64,000 nt of DNA from a virus (lineage: Duplodnaviria > Heunggongvirae > Uroviricota > Caudoviricetes): IMG/VR virus record IMGVR_UViG_2795385890_000001, one strand, 5' to 3'. Shown piece after piece: positions 3,125-31,285 of the stretch. The notes under the pieces are model-generated. The model was not told where the DNA came from. It saw nothing but the letters and a program-made list of their open reading frames with translations, and did not search any database. The first letter of the stretch is position 1; the number at the start of each line of letters is the position of its first letter. A program made the translations under genes and the position numbers.

Positions 3125-3735
3125 TTGAGAACACCTCGCAACGCCACCCCATCGAGCACCTAGCTGGCTGCCTGGACGGCAACACCTCCAACTACATCGA
3201 GGGCATGGAGCGGTCCGGGCAACAGCAGCTCCTCAAGTCCGACCTCCTCCCTACCGACGCTGGGCGGGTGTGGTCAGGCGAGGGCGACGCAATGCTCGGC
3301 ATCAACGGCTGGGATGTTCTGGAACAGTGGGGATTCCAACGCGGCGAAATCGTTGAGGGCGACCCGCTGTTCGTCCGCGCCACCCTCCCGGAAGGGTGGT
3401 CACGCAAGGGCAGTGAACACGCCATGCACTCAACCATTGTCGACGACCGCGGCGTTGAACGCGTCAGCGTCTTCTACAAGGCCGCCTTCTACGACCGCCG
3501 CGCCAGCATGTCCGTGATCACCGACCCCGGAGGCAATCTCGGAAGCAACGCGATCTATGGCGACGCCGCCGTGGCCCTGCCGGAGGAATGGGCGGTGCTC
3601 ACCACCGAAGAGCGCGAGGGATTCCGAGGCGCGCTCGATAGCTATCTACGGCGGGCCGAAGAGTATCCAGACATCTACGGGGACCGGGTGCCACGCGTGC
3701 ATAATCTCGTTGCGCTGGTGGAGGCCGCAGCATGA
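3121..3735 (+). CDS. Hypothetical protein
   Basis: MIENTSQRHPIEHLAGCLDGNTSNYIEG...; in-frame part of track ORF 2995..3735, ATGA coupling on both sides. Confidence 0.5.
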   Translation: MIENTSQRHPIEHLAGCLDGNTSNYIEGMERSGQQQLLKSDLLPTDAGRVWSGEGDAMLGINGWDVLEQWGFQRGEIVEGDPLFVRATLPEGWSRKGSEHAMHSTIVDDRGVERVSVFYKAAFYDRRASMSVITDPGGNLGSNAIYGDAAVALPEEWAVLTTEEREGFRGALDSYLRRAEEYPDIYGDRVPRVHNLVALVEAAA

Positions 3736-4033: not shown

Positions 4034-4602
4034 GCCGTGACGTGTGGGTCGTCGACCTGGAAACAACCGGACTGGACCGGAATGTCCACCTCCCTGTTGA
4101 GGTGGCGGCCGTGAACCTCAAGACCGGGCGCGAAATCCGCTTCGTGCCCTTCATTACCGGAGATGAGCTGGGCAAGGCAGACCGGGAAGCCATGCGGATC
4201 AACATGTACTACGAGCAGGGCCTGTACAAGGACCAGCTTGACCGCGACACGTCAATCCGCTGCTACCAAGACGTTTTCGAGCTGCTACAAGGGCAGACCC
4301 TGGCAGGCGCAAACCCCCGATTTGACGCCGACATGCTGCTGATCGGCTACGAGTGGCTACTCCAGCTGGAACCACGGCTACCCGGTGCCAGCACTCGCGT
4401 AGAGGCGCCATGGCATCACCGCCTTGCAGACGTATGCGCCTACGCCGCAGGCACTCTCAACATCCCACCCGACGACATACCCGGCCTCGCTGGGGTGTGC
4501 CAACTACTTGGCGTCACCAACGAGGCCGAGCACACCGCGCTGGGAGACGCCCGCGCGACCGTCGAATGCTTCCGCCGCCTCTACCCCGGGAAGGACCAAT
4601 GA
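4030..4602 (+). CDS. DnaQ-like 3'-5' exonuclease (DEDDh family)
   Basis: Exo motifs VVDLETTGL, FDADML, HTALGDARAT. GTG at 4030 preceded by GGAGGTCAGC RBS. Track ORF starts at 3976. Confidence 0.65.
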   Translation: MSRDVWVVDLETTGLDRNVHLPVEVAAVNLKTGREIRFVPFITGDELGKADREAMRINMYYEQGLYKDQLDRDTSIRCYQDVFELLQGQTLAGANPRFDADMLLIGYEWLLQLEPRLPGASTRVEAPWHHRLADVCAYAAGTLNIPPDDIPGLAGVCQLLGVTNEAEHTALGDARATVECFRRLYPGKDQ

Positions 4603-27754: not shown

Positions 27755-28095
27755 TCTGGGAACTATGGGCAACCCCGTCCGGCCAGATCTTCTGGCAGCT
27801 CGACAACTGGGGTGGCTTCTACAAATGCGAACCACCCACCGGCGGCCGCGAGACGGTGGATACGCTGCCCGCCGACGCCCGGCCACTGATCAACGACGGC
27901 AGGTGGATCACCGGCGTCATGGACGCCGCCGAAGACGAGGCCCAACGCCGCATCCTGGAGCCCGACTGGCCAACCCAACGTGTAGAACGCCCCTACGAGA
28001 AAGCCCAGCGCCTGCGGTTTGAGCGGTACATGGCAGAGGTCAAGAGCATGACCGCAGCGGCAATCGCCACACCCCAGAATGGCGGAACATCATGA
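27751..28095 (+). CDS. Hypothetical protein
   Basis: ATGA-coupled ORF. Confidence 0.4.
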   Translation: MIWELWATPSGQIFWQLDNWGGFYKCEPPTGGRETVDTLPADARPLINDGRWITGVMDAAEDEAQRRILEPDWPTQRVERPYEKAQRLRFERYMAEVKSMTAAAIATPQNGGTS

Positions 28096-28556
28096 CCGGC
28101 ATCGCCTTCGTTGACGTGACCCTGGCATGGAAACGCATCGAGGATCGTTGGCACAAGGGCCGCTGGTTGTGGGTCGCCCACCACCGCGACGACACCGGTG
28201 GGACGTACACCCTGTTGCCGCGGACAGCGGCGGCGGATACAAGCCCCCGGAGGACCCGGAATGCCCCGAGGGCCAGCACCATCCACCTACAGCTCCGGCA
28301 AGTCATGGCACAGGCGAAACTGGAGGTAACAGCGCTGGTAGCGGGTCTGGCGGTAGCGGTGGGTCCTCGGCGAGTGGAGGGGCTGGCACCGGACGGTGAT
28401 GGTCGCGGCTACCGAGCGGCTATACAGCCAAGCCCCAATCCTGTTGCCGCACCGCTATACCGCGGTATAGCTTCGTTTTCAGACAACAAAACAACGGACG
28501 ACGTGAACAGGATGCAGGTCGGTTATCTCGGGGTACGCCCCCGTAGTTCAAGTTAG
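28092..28556 (+). CDS. Hypothetical protein (only the N-terminal ~70 aa look protein-like; true stop uncertain)
   Basis: ATGA-coupled start. Distal half is low-complexity and overlaps the palindrome/terminator at 28455-28480. Confidence 0.25.
   Translation: MTGIAFVDVTLAWKRIEDRWHKGRWLWVAHHRDDTGGTYTLLPRTAAADTSPRRTRNAPRASTIHLQLRQVMAQAKLEVTALVAGLAVAVGPRRVEGLAPDGDGRGYRAAIQPSPNPVAAPLYRGIASFSDNKTTDDVNRMQVGYLGVRPRSSS
28455..28470. terminator. 16-bp perfect palindrome CTATACCGCGGTATAG followed by TTCGTTTTC (terminator-like; related to the palindrome at 31514)
   Basis: AT-containing perfect palindrome in GC-rich DNA, with a T-run 3' of it, immediately upstream of the tRNA-like repeat array. Confidence 0.4.
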
Positions 28557-28615
28557 AACGCCCCGAGCCAAGCGGGGAAATGGAGCCAAACCCGCCCAGC
28601 GCCAACCACGTTCAC
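28503..28615 (+). ncRNA. Degenerate Y-RNA-like repeat unit 0 (conserved 5'/3' helix elements present, tRNA-like arms decayed)
   Basis: Starts with the conserved block GTGAACAGGATGCAGGTCGGTTATC and ends with CACGTTCAC, which pairs with the 5' GTGAAC. Internal arms are not canonical. Confidence 0.3.
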
Positions 28616-28654
28616 GTCGTACCCCAGACCACAACTACATAGACACCAGATGGT

Positions 28655-28780
28655 GCGAGCAGGACGCAGGTCGGTTACCACTTCTAATGGAGAGGTCGCG
28701 GGTTCGAGTCCCGCCAGCCAGCCCCCGGCTGTAGCTCAGTTGGCAGAGCGCTAAACCCCGGTCAGCACACACACGTTCGC
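28655..28780 (+). ncRNA. Y-RNA-like repeat unit 1 with tRNA-like domain (T-arm GCGGGTTCGAGTCCCGC, acceptor hairpin CAGCCAG/CCGGCTG, D-arm GCTCAGTTGGCAGAGC)
   Basis: Permuted tRNA-like order, no anticodon arm. Outer helix GCGAGC/GTTCGC, inner helix CAGGTCGG/CCGGTCAG. Confidence 0.6.
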
Positions 28781-28817
28781 CCCATCACCCAACACAACTC
28801 CATACACGCATCGGGGT

Positions 28818-28953
28818 GCGACCAGGACGCATGGTCGGTTATCGCATTCGGAGCGGGAGGTCGCAGGTTCAAATCCTGCCCCCGGCATCACATGTCCGGG
28901 GTAGCTCAGCCTGGCAGAGCGCCTAAAACACCGGTCGGCACACACACGGTCGC
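28818..28953 (+). ncRNA. Y-RNA-like repeat unit 2 (T-arm GCAGGTTCAAATCCTGC, acceptor hairpin CCCCGGC/TCCGGGG, D-arm GCTCAGCCTGGCAGAGC)
   Basis: Outer helix GCGACC/GGTCGC compensates relative to unit 1. Confidence 0.6.
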
Positions 28954-28987
28954 GCCCCCTGACACAACTCCATAGACGCAGCACGGT

Positions 28988-29115
28988 GTGAACAGGACGT
29001 CAGTCGGTTAACTCCTTTCACGAGAGAGACGCGGGTTCGAATCCCGTCGACCACGAAAGTGGTTGTAGCTCAGTGGCCTAGAGCGCTTAACCCCGGCAGA
29101 CACCCACACGCTCAC
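28988..29115 (+). ncRNA. Y-RNA-like repeat unit 3 (T-arm GCGGGTTCGAATCCCGT, acceptor hairpin CGACCAC-gaaa-GTGGTTG, D-arm GCTCAGTGGCCTAGAGC)
   Basis: Perfect 7-bp closed acceptor hairpin; outer helix GTGAAC/GCTCAC. Confidence 0.6.
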
Positions 29116-29154
29116 ACCGCCTCAAACGCCAGCAGACGCACGCGCGCAGGCGGT

Positions 29155-29285
29155 GTGGACAGGACGCAGGGCGGTTACCAAAACAGTCAGGTGTGGGTTC
29201 GAGCCCCACCACCTCGATCGCGGGGTGTAGCCCAATTGGTAGAGGCAATTGTCCACATACGCCGGTCAGCACCCCACACGCCCAC
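29155..29285 (+). ncRNA. Y-RNA-like repeat unit 4 (T-arm GTGGGTTCGAGCCCCAC, acceptor hairpin CACCTCG-atcg-CGGGGTG, weakened D-arm)
   Basis: Outer helix GTGGAC/GCCCAC; D-arm TAGCCCAATTGGTAGAGGC is partly degenerate. Confidence 0.5.
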
Positions 29286-29329
29286 ACCACCTACGCGCAC
29301 GCACGACAGACAACCCGATGTGAACAGGA

Positions 29330-29434
29330 CGCTCGGTCGGTTATCACTCAATTGGTTAATGCAGGTTCAAGCCCTGTCGCCCGCACCCAGTGCGGGTGTA
29401 AAAGCGAAATCCCGGTCAGCACAAACACGTTCAC
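29330..29434 (+). ncRNA. Y-RNA-like repeat unit 5 (T-arm GCAGGTTCAAGCCCTGT, acceptor hairpin CGCCCGC/GCGGGTG, D-arm deleted)
   Basis: Outer helix GTGAAC/GTTCAC is perfect; D-arm replaced by TAAAAGCGAAAT. Confidence 0.45.
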
Positions 29435-29464
29435 ATCACCCGCCCAATAGCCCTCGCGGGTGGC

Positions 29465-29537
29465 ACGAGCAGGATCGCAGTCGGTTACCCCACCCCTCGC
29501 AAGGATGACGAACCCCGGCGGCCCTTCACACGTTCGC
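29465..29537 (+). ncRNA. Degenerate terminal repeat remnant (conserved CGAGCAGGATCGCAGTCGGTTACC ... CACACGTTCGCG only)
   Basis: Has the conserved 5' and 3' helix blocks but no T-arm or D-arm. Lies directly before the RBS of the Ro60 gene. Confidence 0.25.
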
Positions 29538-29569
29538 GCCGCCCGCACCCTCTAACAAGGAGATGCACG

Positions 29570-31285
29570 GTGGACGTTCTCACCACTATCGGAACCCGTA
29601 AGACGCCGCAGTCGCAGCAGGCGGACCCCCGGCAGGTGAAGAACTCCGCCGGTGGCTACACCTTCACCATCGACGACGAGGCCCTGCTGCACCGCTTCCT
29701 CACCCTCGGCACCGACGGCGGCACCTACTACACCAACGCCCCCGACCTCACCAAGGACACAGCGGCCGTCGTGCTCCGCGCAGCAGCCGCCGACCCAGTC
29801 CGCCTCGTCCAGCACATCGTCGAGGTGTCCGTGGACGGACGCGCACCCCGGCAGAACCCGGCCCTGTTCGCCCTCGCCATCGCCGCCGCAGCAGAGGACG
29901 TCGACGGCCGCCGCGCCGCAGCAGCCGCCCTGCCCACGGTCGCCCGCACCGGCACTCAGCTCTACACGTTCGTCAAGTACATGGAGCAGTTCCGCGGGTG
30001 GGGCCGCGCCATGCAGCGGGCCGTCGGCGGCTGGTACCTCGACAAGCCCGTCGACCGCCTCGCCTACCAGCTGGTCAAGTACCGGCAGCGCGAAGGCTGG
30101 ATGCACCGGGACCTCCTGCGCCTGTCTGGCCCCGCCACGGCGGACCCGGCCCGCCGCCTCGCCTTCAACTGGGCAGTCGGCAAGGGCCTGAACGACTACA
30201 TCGGCAAGATCCGGCCCCTCACCGCCGAGCAGTTGAAGGCAGGGGAGCGCAACGCCTCCCGGCCCAAGCTGCCGAATGTCGAGCTGTCGGTTGACCACCC
30301 CCTGGCGATCATCGAGGACTTCGAGGACGCCCAGCGCGCCAGCCAACCCAAGGAATGGGTGAGCATCATTCGACGTGGCAACGGCCTTCCGTGGGAAGCG
30401 TTGCCAGACGTCGCGCTCAACTTCACCGCTGTGTGGGAAGCGCTGATTGAGCATGGGCTGCCGCAGACGGCTTTGATGCGCCAACTGCCTCGTCTGACCC
30501 GGCACGGCGTCCTGCATGGTGAATATCTGGATCGTGTCGTTGCTCAGCTCCAGGACGCCGACCGTCTACGCAAGGGCCGCGTCCACCCGGTCAACGTCCT
30601 GATCGCGCAGCGCACCTACGCGTCCGGGCATTCGGCGCGCGGCGACTCCACCTGGACGCCGGAACGCAAGGTCGTGGATGCCCTGGACGCCGCGTTCTAC
30701 AACGCCTACGGAGCGGTAGAGCCGTCGGGCAAGCGCACCCTGCTGGCGCTGGACGTGTCCGGCTCCATGGGCGCCGCGATCTCAGGTATGCCGCTGACAT
30801 GCCGCGAGGCCGCAGCCGCACTCGCACTCGTCACCACCAACGTCGAGCCCAACCACGAGGTCGTCGGCTTCACCGACGGCCGACAGGCCGCGCGCTCGGG
30901 CTACGGCTACCGGTCCCAGCACCACATCACCCCGCTGGACATCACACCGCGCCGCCGTCTCGACGACGTCTGCCGGTACACCGCCGGACTCAGCTTCGGC
31001 GCTACCGACTGCGCACTCCCCATGCTGTGGGCACAGCAGTCCAAGCGCGAGTTCGACACGTTCGTGGTCATCACCGACAACGAGACCTGGTTCGGCGACG
31101 TCCACCCGCACCAGGCGCTCCGCGACTACCGCAACAAGATGGGCATCAACGCCCGCCTGATCGTTGTCGGCATGACGGCAACCCGCTTCACCATCGCCGA
31201 CCCCGCCGACCCCGGCCAGCTCGACGTATCCGGTTTCGACTCAGCTGTCCCGCAGCTGATCTCGGACTTCTCAGCCGGACTGTAG
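29570..31285 (+). CDS. rsr: Ro60-like TROVE-domain protein with C-terminal vWA/MIDAS domain (Rsr ortholog)
   Basis: N-terminus KNSAGGYTFTIDDEALLHRFLTLGTDGGTYYTNAPDLTKDTAAVVLR...GRAPRQNPALFALAIAAA is the Ro60/Rsr TROVE signature. C-terminus LALDVSGSM is a MIDAS DxSxS motif of vWA. RBS AAGGAG before the GTG start. Confidence 0.8.
   Translation: MDVLTTIGTRKTPQSQQADPRQVKNSAGGYTFTIDDEALLHRFLTLGTDGGTYYTNAPDLTKDTAAVVLRAAAADPVRLVQHIVEVSVDGRAPRQNPALFALAIAAAAEDVDGRRAAAAALPTVARTGTQLYTFVKYMEQFRGWGRAMQRAVGGWYLDKPVDRLAYQLVKYRQREGWMHRDLLRLSGPATADPARRLAFNWAVGKGLNDYIGKIRPLTAEQLKAGERNASRPKLPNVELSVDHPLAIIEDFEDAQRASQPKEWVSIIRRGNGLPWEALPDVALNFTAVWEALIEHGLPQTALMRQLPRLTRHGVLHGEYLDRVVAQLQDADRLRKGRVHPVNVLIAQRTYASGHSARGDSTWTPERKVVDALDAAFYNAYGAVEPSGKRTLLALDVSGSMGAAISGMPLTCREAAAALALVTTNVEPNHEVVGFTDGRQAARSGYGYRSQHHITPLDITPRRRLDDVCRYTAGLSFGATDCALPMLWAQQSKREFDTFVVITDNETWFGDVHPHQALRDYRNKMGINARLIVVGMTATRFTIADPADPGQLDVSGFDSAVPQLISDFSAGL

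Follow-up and report, generated by a model that had tools for sequence, protein, structure and literature searches.

A Tandem Array of Seven Probable Y-RNA Genes Directly Upstream of the Ro60 Gene in a Mycobacterium abscessus-Type Prophage

Known Y RNAs and the locus upstream of rsr

YrlA RNAs, a class of bacterial and phage Y RNAs, have been reported next to the rsr gene in 254 bacteria and 22 phages (Chen 2014, RNA 20:1715, PMC4201824). They contain T, acceptor-stem, and D stem-loops, show covariation at the Levitt pair, and are modified by TruB and DusA (Chen 2014, PMC4201824). In M. smegmatis, YrlA is bound by Rsr, cleaved by RNase P owing to its 7-bp acceptor stem, and extended with CCA, and YrlA and YrlB are processed from a single precursor upstream of rsr (Chen 2014, PMC4201824). 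The crystal structure of the transfer RNA (tRNA)-like domain of S. Typhimurium YrlA is available (PDB 6CU1), and YrlA has been likened to circularly permuted tRNAs with closed acceptor stems (Wang 2018, bioRxiv 10.1101/312249). In the Thermus phage phiLo, Ro60 binds two upstream Y-like RNAs as well as the host PNPase (PMC12135203). The 64-kb stretch analyzed here, referred to below as the window (64,000 nucleotides of the IMG/VR record IMGVR_UViG_2795385890_000001, Caudoviricetes), contains a tandem series of seven repeat units, very probably Y-RNA genes of a Mycobacterium abscessus-type prophage, which directly precede its Ro60 (Rsr) gene and share the orientation of that gene. An original prediction for this region had proposed a Y RNA carrying a circularly permuted tRNA mimic, and this proposal is upheld by the downstream rsr gene, the topology of the Rfam YrlA family, homology to the YrlA of mycobacteriophage ET08, and matches to M. 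smegmatis probes. The novelty that it implied is wrong, because the architecture had already been published in 2014 and 2018; the array adds a new locus to the already known class of YrlA-type Y RNAs in bacteria and phages.

A covariance model built from the five units first noticed (R1) finds seven units, U0 to U6, in the whole window, all on the plus strand and contiguous, with spacers of 20–30 nt between them. The stretch originally described, 28655–29434, corresponds to U1–U5, and U0, U5, and U6 are variant units. The array is followed on the same strand by rsr (29570–31285), which encodes a Ro60 orthologue of 571 aa with matches to the Pfam families TROVE (E=9e-46) and vWA_Ro60 (E=6.5e-64); relatives of the product are annotated as 'Ro-like RNA binding protein', and by analogy it is presumed to be the partner protein of the Y RNAs. 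The seven matches lie 27–1071 nt upstream of this gene on the shared strand, within the distance of less than 4 kb that is taken as characteristic of YrlA. Synteny is equally strict in a comparison set of 48 loci encoding Rsr relatives, drawn from IMG/VR and GTDB genomes (L001–L048): all 164 matches in the window and these loci are on the rsr strand, and nearly all are upstream of the gene, usually as 2–7 tandem units.

The locus resembles the Rfam YrlA family (RF02553) in its position next to rsr on the same strand, its end-paired stem with a candidate Ro-site motif, its YUAY sequence, V loop, T arm, closed acceptor, and D arm, and its Levitt pair. It differs in scoring 26–38 bits against the family model, as do other actinobacterial and phage YrlAs, and in its stem motif, which is GC(A/C)GGA rather than GNCGAA. 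The acceptor stem has 6 bp in Salmonella YrlA and 7 bp here, and seven units rather than one or two are present here, of which U1–U3 carry an extra anticodon-mimic hairpin. The YrlA/YrlB pair of M. smegmatis (Chen 2014 Fig. 3) comes from the same genus-level lineage and shares the 7-bp acceptor stem and the presence of several Y RNAs upstream of rsr, including a second, reduced Y RNA between YrlA and rsr; however, M. smegmatis has two such RNAs, in contrast to the seven on this prophage, and the RNase P cleavage, CCA addition, and Rsr binding demonstrated there would apply here by analogy. Mycobacteriophages ET08 (cluster C1) and Sparky likewise have a phage Ro60 gene with Y-like RNAs immediately upstream, but with one full and one minimal unit each, whereas the array described here is far larger and belongs to a temperate M. 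abscessus prophage.

The phiLo Yrl1 and Yrl2 RNAs also lie upstream of a phage Ro60 gene and bind both the phage Ro60 and the PNPase of the host; they are described as stem-bulge-stem RNAs, and the term 'tRNA-like' is absent from the main text of that study (PMC12135203). Yrn1 and Yrn2 of D. radiodurans and the Y RNAs of metazoans are bound by Ro60 and have a terminal bulged stem with a GGUC(C)GA-like 5' strand, which resembles GGUCGGU here, and Deinococcus also has several Y RNAs upstream of rsr. In contrast to the units in the window, Yrn1 has another arm order and only a partial likeness to tRNA, and metazoan Y RNAs have no tRNA-like module.

Conserved structure and family assignment

The original prediction had given a single order of elements for every well-preserved unit. 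This order, consisting of Y stem, V loop, T arm, closed acceptor hairpin, UA, D arm, and Y stem, is found in U1–U4, but not in U5, which has the T arm and acceptor hairpin without a D arm. The 5' acceptor strand pairs with the 3' strand that precedes it, as had been proposed: 6–7 of the 7 positions pair in this register, compared with 2–5 of 7 when the strand of the following unit is used. The hairpin is fully paired (7/7) in U3, U4, and U5, and pairs at 6 of 7 positions in U1 (one A·C) and U2 (one C·U). The two ends of each unit form the terminal helix P1, whose outermost pairs covary between units as listed in the prediction, and which, at 9–10 bp with compensatory differences between units, is longer than had been described. 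The conserved inner helix, P2, is real, but it is interrupted by an A·A mismatch or a bulge and holds two G·U pairs. Between the two helices lies an asymmetric internal loop that had been called invariant; this is true of its 5' side, which reads AGGACG in all of U1–U5, whereas the 3' side varies (CACACACACG, ACACCCACACG, CACCCCACACG, and CACAAACACG), with only ACACG conserved.

An independent alignment of 18 non-redundant sequences, mostly less than 85% identical to one another, was made with MAFFT and RNAalifold without fitting to a model. Its consensus recovers the same helices that had been proposed, namely, the terminal helix, inner helix, T arm, acceptor hairpin, and D arm, with compensatory changes in 25 of 33 pairs; the best-conserved 5' sequence in this alignment is UCGGUUA in the inner helix. 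When the Levitt pair is added, 94.2% of the cells are paired, compared with 33–44% for slid partners, and both sides change in 26 of 34 pairs, and none of 500 shuffles reached any of the covariation measures. Compensatory changes affect all seven pairs of the acceptor hairpin and 8/9 to 10/10 pairs of the terminal helix, and the Levitt pair 15:48 itself covaries, being G:C in 14 sequences and A:U in another 3, with a single exception. In a model-fitted alignment of 110 distinct sequences, 93.8% of the positions are paired and 32 of 36 pairs are compensatory. The G·U and U·G pairs that are frequent in P2 and the T stem of this alignment (UG:83, GU:45, and GU:31) would be A·C mismatches on the other strand, which indicates that the plus strand is the RNA strand. 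Nucleotides invariant in tRNAs are also present, in the sequences GUAGCUCAGUUGG(C/U)AGAGC and GGUUCGA(G/A)UCC, including U8, A14, G18G19, and the T-loop residues. The claim that selection has acted on RNA structure rather than on coding sequence is supported by the compensatory changes and the shuffles. The folding of single units, which had been suggested as a check, gives a mixed result: the minimum-energy fold of U2 recovers all helices from the single sequence, but the fold z-scores are weak overall (−0.2 to −2.5 on the plus strand and +1.2 to −1.2 on the minus strand) and do not discriminate, so that the structural case rests on covariation and not on thermodynamics.

RF02553 (YrlA) is the only Rfam family that matches the units, and the topology of its model is the same: stem, T arm, acceptor hairpin, D arm, and stem. 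The published ET08 YrlA (Chen 2014 Fig. 1D) scores 84.9 and 104.5 bits against the models derived from the window, over the full length of these models. The reverse complement of the M. smegmatis YrlA-5' Northern probe matches 28675–28697 in U1 at 21 of 23 positions, and the region of the YrlA-3' Northern probe matches the 3' end of U4 at 17 of 19. In the alignment, the candidate Ro site (the 5' strand of the internal loop) falls where the published GNCGAAN0-1G motif would lie, and the YUAY sequence before the V region is UUAC or UUAU in every unit. The 7-bp acceptor stem that is a prerequisite for cutting by RNase P and for the attachment of CCA is complete in U3–U5 and nearly so in U1 and U2.

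Several observations weigh against assigning the array to functional YrlA genes. At gathering thresholds, Rfam gives no match anywhere in the window, and YrlA surfaced only in E-value mode; the scores of U1 to U4 are 37.6, 36.7 (full length), 26.5, and 25.8 bits (full length), all below the gathering threshold of 69. The GNCGAAN0-1G motif is only approximated in the window as GCAGGACG, with GCAGGA at the aligned position, where close relatives have GCCGGA and the distant locus L033 has the exact GCCGAAGG. U1, U4, and U6 fold no more stably than shuffled sequences, and a promoter scan not tuned to mycobacteria revealed no sigma-70-like site 5' of the array. The results shown here concern sequence, strand, synteny, homology, and structure that is conserved and covaries; that the RNAs are transcribed and processed, bind Rsr, and have an effector would follow by analogy with published homologues. 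With regard to the Rfam scores, the published YrlAs of ET08 and Sparky score alike on the same model (37.4 and 36.6 bits, respectively), and the shortfall therefore lies with the model and its threshold and not with the sequence. At this threshold, the Rfam family leaves out the entire branch of actinobacterial and phage YrlAs.

The function of the array may be outlined from the known systems. The 5' and 3' ends of each unit pair to form P1, the asymmetric internal loop with GC(A/C)GGA and ACACG, and P2 with a near-invariant UCGGUUA, and this bulged stem would be the Rsr-binding module, as judged by homology. The distal end would form an L-shaped tRNA mimic composed of the V loop, the T arm, the acceptor stem closed by a 3–8-nt loop, U8-A9, and the D arm. 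To judge from M. smegmatis, one precursor probably spans the array together with rsr and is cut into single RNAs; RNase P may then open the 7-bp acceptor hairpins, followed by the addition of CCA, with the resulting two-piece RNAs remaining on Rsr. Enzymes acting on tRNA would be expected to recognize the tRNA-like module, which may recruit a hypothetical tRNA-recognizing partner or effector, and the stem may gate Rsr or tether it, for example, to the host PNPase, as is plausible from work on Deinococcus, Salmonella, and phiLo. M. abscessus prophages are clinically relevant, and a Ro60 ribonucleoprotein encoded by a lysogen may affect host RNA metabolism or phage defence.

The anticodon-arm mimic and alternative explanations

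In U1, U2, and U3, the segment between GGUUAY and the V loop (28675–28697, 28839–28861, and 29008–29030, respectively) completes a mimic of the anticodon arm. The hairpin in this segment has been named 'V' (Chen 2014, PMC4201824), and relatives with the mimic include L019 (2352–2489) and L028 (2681–2814). Nucleotides 27'-28', which follow directly on the D arm and N26, are paired with nucleotides 42-43, and the pairs 29:41, 30:40, and 31:39 of a local hairpin, stacked on the 27'-28'/42-43 pairs, close a 7-nt loop. In units of the U1–U3 type, the Y stem branches from the anticodon stem between nucleotides 28 and 29, and in those of the U4 type, all five anticodon-stem pairs are made with the segment after the D arm, as in Salmonella YrlA. 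The terminal helix had been placed where the anticodon stem of a tRNA would be; as a simple replacement this does not hold, since U1–U4 have a 5-bp equivalent of that stem.

MAFFT put the two length classes of the hairpin out of register, and anchor-based counting and a second covariance model that includes the mimic pairs (R2) were used instead. In the alignment fitted to R2, all five pairs are compensatory and P3 is 98% paired; pair 33/46, for example, is CG in 16 cases, GC in 11, AU in 9, and UA in 8. A grid of loop and V-region lengths was weakly discriminating, with 66% paired for a 7-nt loop and a 5-nt V region and 33–70% for the other settings, and neighbouring settings describe the same hairpin helix. 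Among 29 distinct sequences, the 7-nt loop has U33 in 25 and R37 in 26; A38 is a further feature of the loop, and positions 34–36 are variable. The triplets are UCU, UCG, and UUC in U1–U3 and UGU, UUU, GUU, UGC, CUG, CGG, UGG, and UCA in relatives. It is conceivable, though rather unlikely, that units of the U1–U3 type are complete permuted cloverleaves and that an array with different triplets serves as a panel of Rsr-tethered tRNA surrogates. Such a panel would connect phage Ro60 with tRNA-targeting defence and with counter-defence. The mimic is also relevant to what the tRNA-like module recognizes and to the proposal that YrlA arose from dimeric tRNAs.

The same features raise the question of whether U1–U3 are true circularly permuted tRNA genes of the kind found in Cyanidioschyzon and some archaea, in which removal of the Y stem with ligation, together with opening of the acceptor loop, would give rise to chargeable tRNAs (Arg-UCU, Arg-UCG, and Glu-UUC), with Rsr as an auxiliary. 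Circularly permuted tRNA genes were reportedly described in Cyanidioschyzon merolae by Soma et al. in 2007. Both these genes and the two-piece permuted transfer-messenger RNA have an acceptor stem that starts out as a closed loop, which RNase P can open, and in both the 5' and 3' ends form pairs within or close to the anticodon stem, as in the units of the array; permuted tRNA genes differ in that a splicing endonuclease and a ligase mature them into functional tRNAs, whereas the terminal stem here is conserved as a putative protein-binding module. All four cloverleaf arms, a 7-nt loop with U33 and R37, and 7-bp acceptor stems are indeed present in U1–U3, in vivo, RNase P cleaves M. smegmatis YrlA, which also acquires a CCA tail (Chen 2014, PMC4201824), and the possibility was raised for YrlA itself (Wang 2018, bioRxiv 10.1101/312249); in Salmonella, rsr and Y RNAs share one operon with the RtcB ligase. 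However, bacterial splicing endonucleases are not known (Wang 2018, bioRxiv 10.1101/312249), and no bulge-helix-bulge motif is evident at the locus, although no search aimed at that motif was made. The Y stem carries the best-conserved, Ro-site-like sequence, and the synteny with rsr is strict; the U4-type units, U5, and U6 lack the anticodon loop or whole arms and are nevertheless conserved. In M. smegmatis, both halves of the cleaved RNA remain on Rsr (Chen 2014, PMC4201824), and the 'anticodon' of U1 is UCU in one and UGU in another of two near-identical prophages, which would be odd for essential decoding. These observations make chargeable permuted tRNAs very unlikely and favor Y RNAs with a tRNA mimic.

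A cluster of ordinary or decaying tRNA genes, in which a T arm followed by the D arm of the next tRNA only looks permuted, has a still lower probability; it corresponds to the 'dimeric tRNA' false positive against which Chen et al. warned (PMC4201824). ARAGORN calls a tRNA-Arg(tct) at 28646–28724, in the U1 region, GenBank records carry tRNA-Thr and tRNA-Arg annotations on equivalent units, the T and D arms, like the anticodon-like loops, closely resemble those of tRNAs, and BLAST finds matches to genuine phage tRNAs at 78–95% identity over the T-arm region. The pairing contradicts this explanation, because the 5' acceptor strand pairs with the 3' strand 3–8 nt upstream of it far better than with that of the following unit, and all seven pairs of this hairpin covary. 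In addition, the approximately 95 nt from the D arm to the next T arm form the covarying P1 and P2 with the unit's own 5' end rather than the anticodon arm of a canonical tRNA. The Rfam tRNA model scores 16.4 bits against a gathering score of 29, with the acceptor strands in 3'-then-5' order, and ARAGORN finds no second tRNA in the array. Canonical tRNA genes were therefore rejected, and the lone ARAGORN call is regarded as an artefact. That the repeats act as DNA or protein (iterons, recombination sites, or coding repeats) with incidental RNA structure is the least credible explanation and was rejected as well: long high-GC open reading frames (ORFs) do occur on both strands (for example, 29059–29508, plus strand, 149 aa) and copy number varies among related prophages, but the compensatory substitutions, the strand-specific G·U wobble pairs, and loop indels of many lengths, which would disrupt any reading frame, contradict it, no coding sequence is annotated here in relatives, and the ORF overlapping U0 has no Pfam match.

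Individual units, array variation and neighbouring features

The individual units of the Y-RNA array differ in completeness. U1 (28651–28786; R1 139.4 bits, R2 131 bits) is a full YrlA-type unit, in which the 5' strand of P1 (28651–28660), the conserved AGGAC (28661–28665), and the 5' strand of P2 (28666–28674) are followed by UUA (28675–28677), the anticodon-like hairpin with the loop CUUCUAA (28678–28690), nucleotides 42-43 (28691–28692), and the V loop AGGUC (28693–28697). The T arm (28698–28714), acceptor hairpin (28715–28731), UA (28732–28733), and D arm (28734–28749) come next, and G26 (28750), nucleotides 27'-28' (28751–28752), and the 3' strands of P2 (28758–28766) and P1 (28775–28784) complete the unit. 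U2 (28814–28959; R1 122.5 bits, R2 135.8 bits) is also a full YrlA-type unit, with the anticodon-like loop AUUCGGA and the acceptor hairpin CCCCGGC-AUCACAUG-UCCGGGG. The third full unit of this type, U3 (28984–29121; R1 136.8 bits, fold z = −2.54), combines a V loop of 4 nt with the anticodon-like loop CUUUCAC, and all 7 bp of its acceptor hairpin, CGACCAC-GAAA-GUGGUUG, are formed. U4 (29151–29291; R1 118.9 bits) is a full unit of the canonical, Salmonella-like YrlA subtype without a local hairpin; its 5-bp anticodon-stem equivalent, ACAGU/AUUGU, pairs the segment before the V loop with that after the D arm, and its Levitt pair is A15:U48.

The remaining three units are reduced, each in a different manner. 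U0 (28499–28621; R1 46.7 bits, E=1.8e-8) is a degenerate Y-RNA unit whose fold keeps the terminal helix and the Ro-side helix and has no T arm; an acceptor-like hairpin, CGGGG-UAC-GCCCCCG, can be read from the sequence, followed by UA and a D-arm-like hairpin, GUUCAAGUUAGAAC. U5 (29316–29440; R1 99.8 bits), as judged from its element lengths, is a variant without a D arm that retains the T arm and a 7-bp acceptor hairpin, CGCCCGC-ACCCAGU-GCGGGUG. The segment 5' of its T arm, CAATTGGTTAATGCA (29349–29363), resembles the D-loop region of U4, CAATTGGTAGAGGCA (29233–29247), and may be a relic of a D arm in the canonical position or may be due to chance. U6 (29461–29543; R1 33.8 bits, E=2e-5) is a minimal Y-RNA unit consisting of the Y stem without the tRNA-like module. 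Most actinobacterial and phage relatives likewise have such a unit in the final position before rsr, and its equivalent in ET08 lies at 3160–3235 of the ET08 locus.

Upstream of rsr, arrays of 2–7 units are the norm in both mycobacterial prophages and Actinomycetota, and the seven units of the window make it one of the largest Y-RNA arrays in this survey. Among prophages with 97–98% identical Rsr (L001–L010, L015, and L022), seven units are found in the window, L004, and L005, and mostly six elsewhere; U2 is the unit missing from the six-unit relatives, and L006 has five units and a partial one (2455–2579). This copy-number polymorphism is consistent with unequal recombination between units. 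In phages with 62–75% identical Rsr, the units are most similar to their positional counterparts (86–90% for U1, 92% for U5, and 76–82% for U6), compared with at most 76% identity to their neighbours, which argues that the units are old, maintained paralogues and are not redundant. U5 and U6 types hold their positions as the penultimate and last units before rsr, and U5 and U6 are 92% and 82% identical to 2761–2885 and 2899–2979 of L011, respectively, although the Rsr of that locus is only 75% identical. The retention of both position and identity suggests that these 'defective-looking' units are under selection. Outside Actinomycetota, arrays of four to five tRNA-like Y units are seen at 2035–2593 of L033, from a Fimbriimonas metagenome-assembled genome, at 80–2100 of L026, and in the Poribacteria loci L037–L048. 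In the Poribacteria loci, matches are confined to the central, tRNA-like portion of the model (positions 44–102), pointing to a different stem.

The closest GenBank records are the M. abscessus prophages prophiGD43A-5 and prophiT37-1, at approximately 88% identity, and the region of the array is without annotation in both, except for one 'tRNA-Thr' in prophiGD43A-5. Annotations of tRNA-Thr or tRNA-Arg sit immediately upstream of the Ro genes in prophiGD43A-5, VanLee, and Magritte; those at 4247–4325 of L001 (MW584167, tRNA-Thr), 375–446 of the VanLee locus (L050, tRNA-Arg), and 2487–2563 of the Magritte locus (L051, tRNA-Arg) overlap matches to the YrlA model. The combination of the anticodon-arm mimic, the V loop, and the T arm accounts for these calls and for that of ARAGORN, and these tRNA genes, annotated just upstream of a 'Ro-like RNA binding protein' in several actinobacteriophage records, are almost certainly misannotated Y RNAs. 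The main use of confirming the array would be the correction of annotation, as the region is unannotated or labelled as tRNA in closely related GenBank prophages. Genuine tRNA genes also occur near phage YrlA: Sparky (L018) has four (Ser, Pro, Trp, and Tyr) at 1994–2552, on the same strand and directly upstream of its YrlA at 2613–2751, and the ET08 locus (L049) has tRNA-Gln and tRNA-Asn at 310–464, approximately 2.5 kb upstream. Their presence would fit the proposal that YrlA originated from clusters or dimers of tRNAs.

Between the array and rsr, an AAGGAG ribosome-binding site for rsr can be read from the sequence at 29557–29562 on the plus strand. No general processing signal emerged from the alignment of the spacers, and the later spacers have no shared motif, but spacers 1–3 (28629–28666, 28792–28829, and 28962–28999) share ACACAACTCCATAGACGCA, ACACAAC(T/A)(C/A)CATA(G/C)AC(A/G)C, which could be a processing or promoter element. 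Terminator-like sites in the region do not exceed the number expected from shuffled sequences; one such hairpin, GCTATACCGCGGTATAGC followed by TTCGTTTTCA (28454–28481, plus strand, a consensus match only), lies just 5' of the array and is probably where the preceding transcription unit ends. At approximately 28230, the window lacks a 1.2–1.3-kb segment that is present in close prophage relatives (L001 2518–3828 and L004 493–1659); in L001 and L002, this segment immediately precedes the Y-RNA array and encodes a BrnT-like toxin and its antitoxin, an RNase toxin–antitoxin pair. The ORF at 28092–28556, which runs into U0 and has no Pfam match, is probably a truncated or fused remnant.

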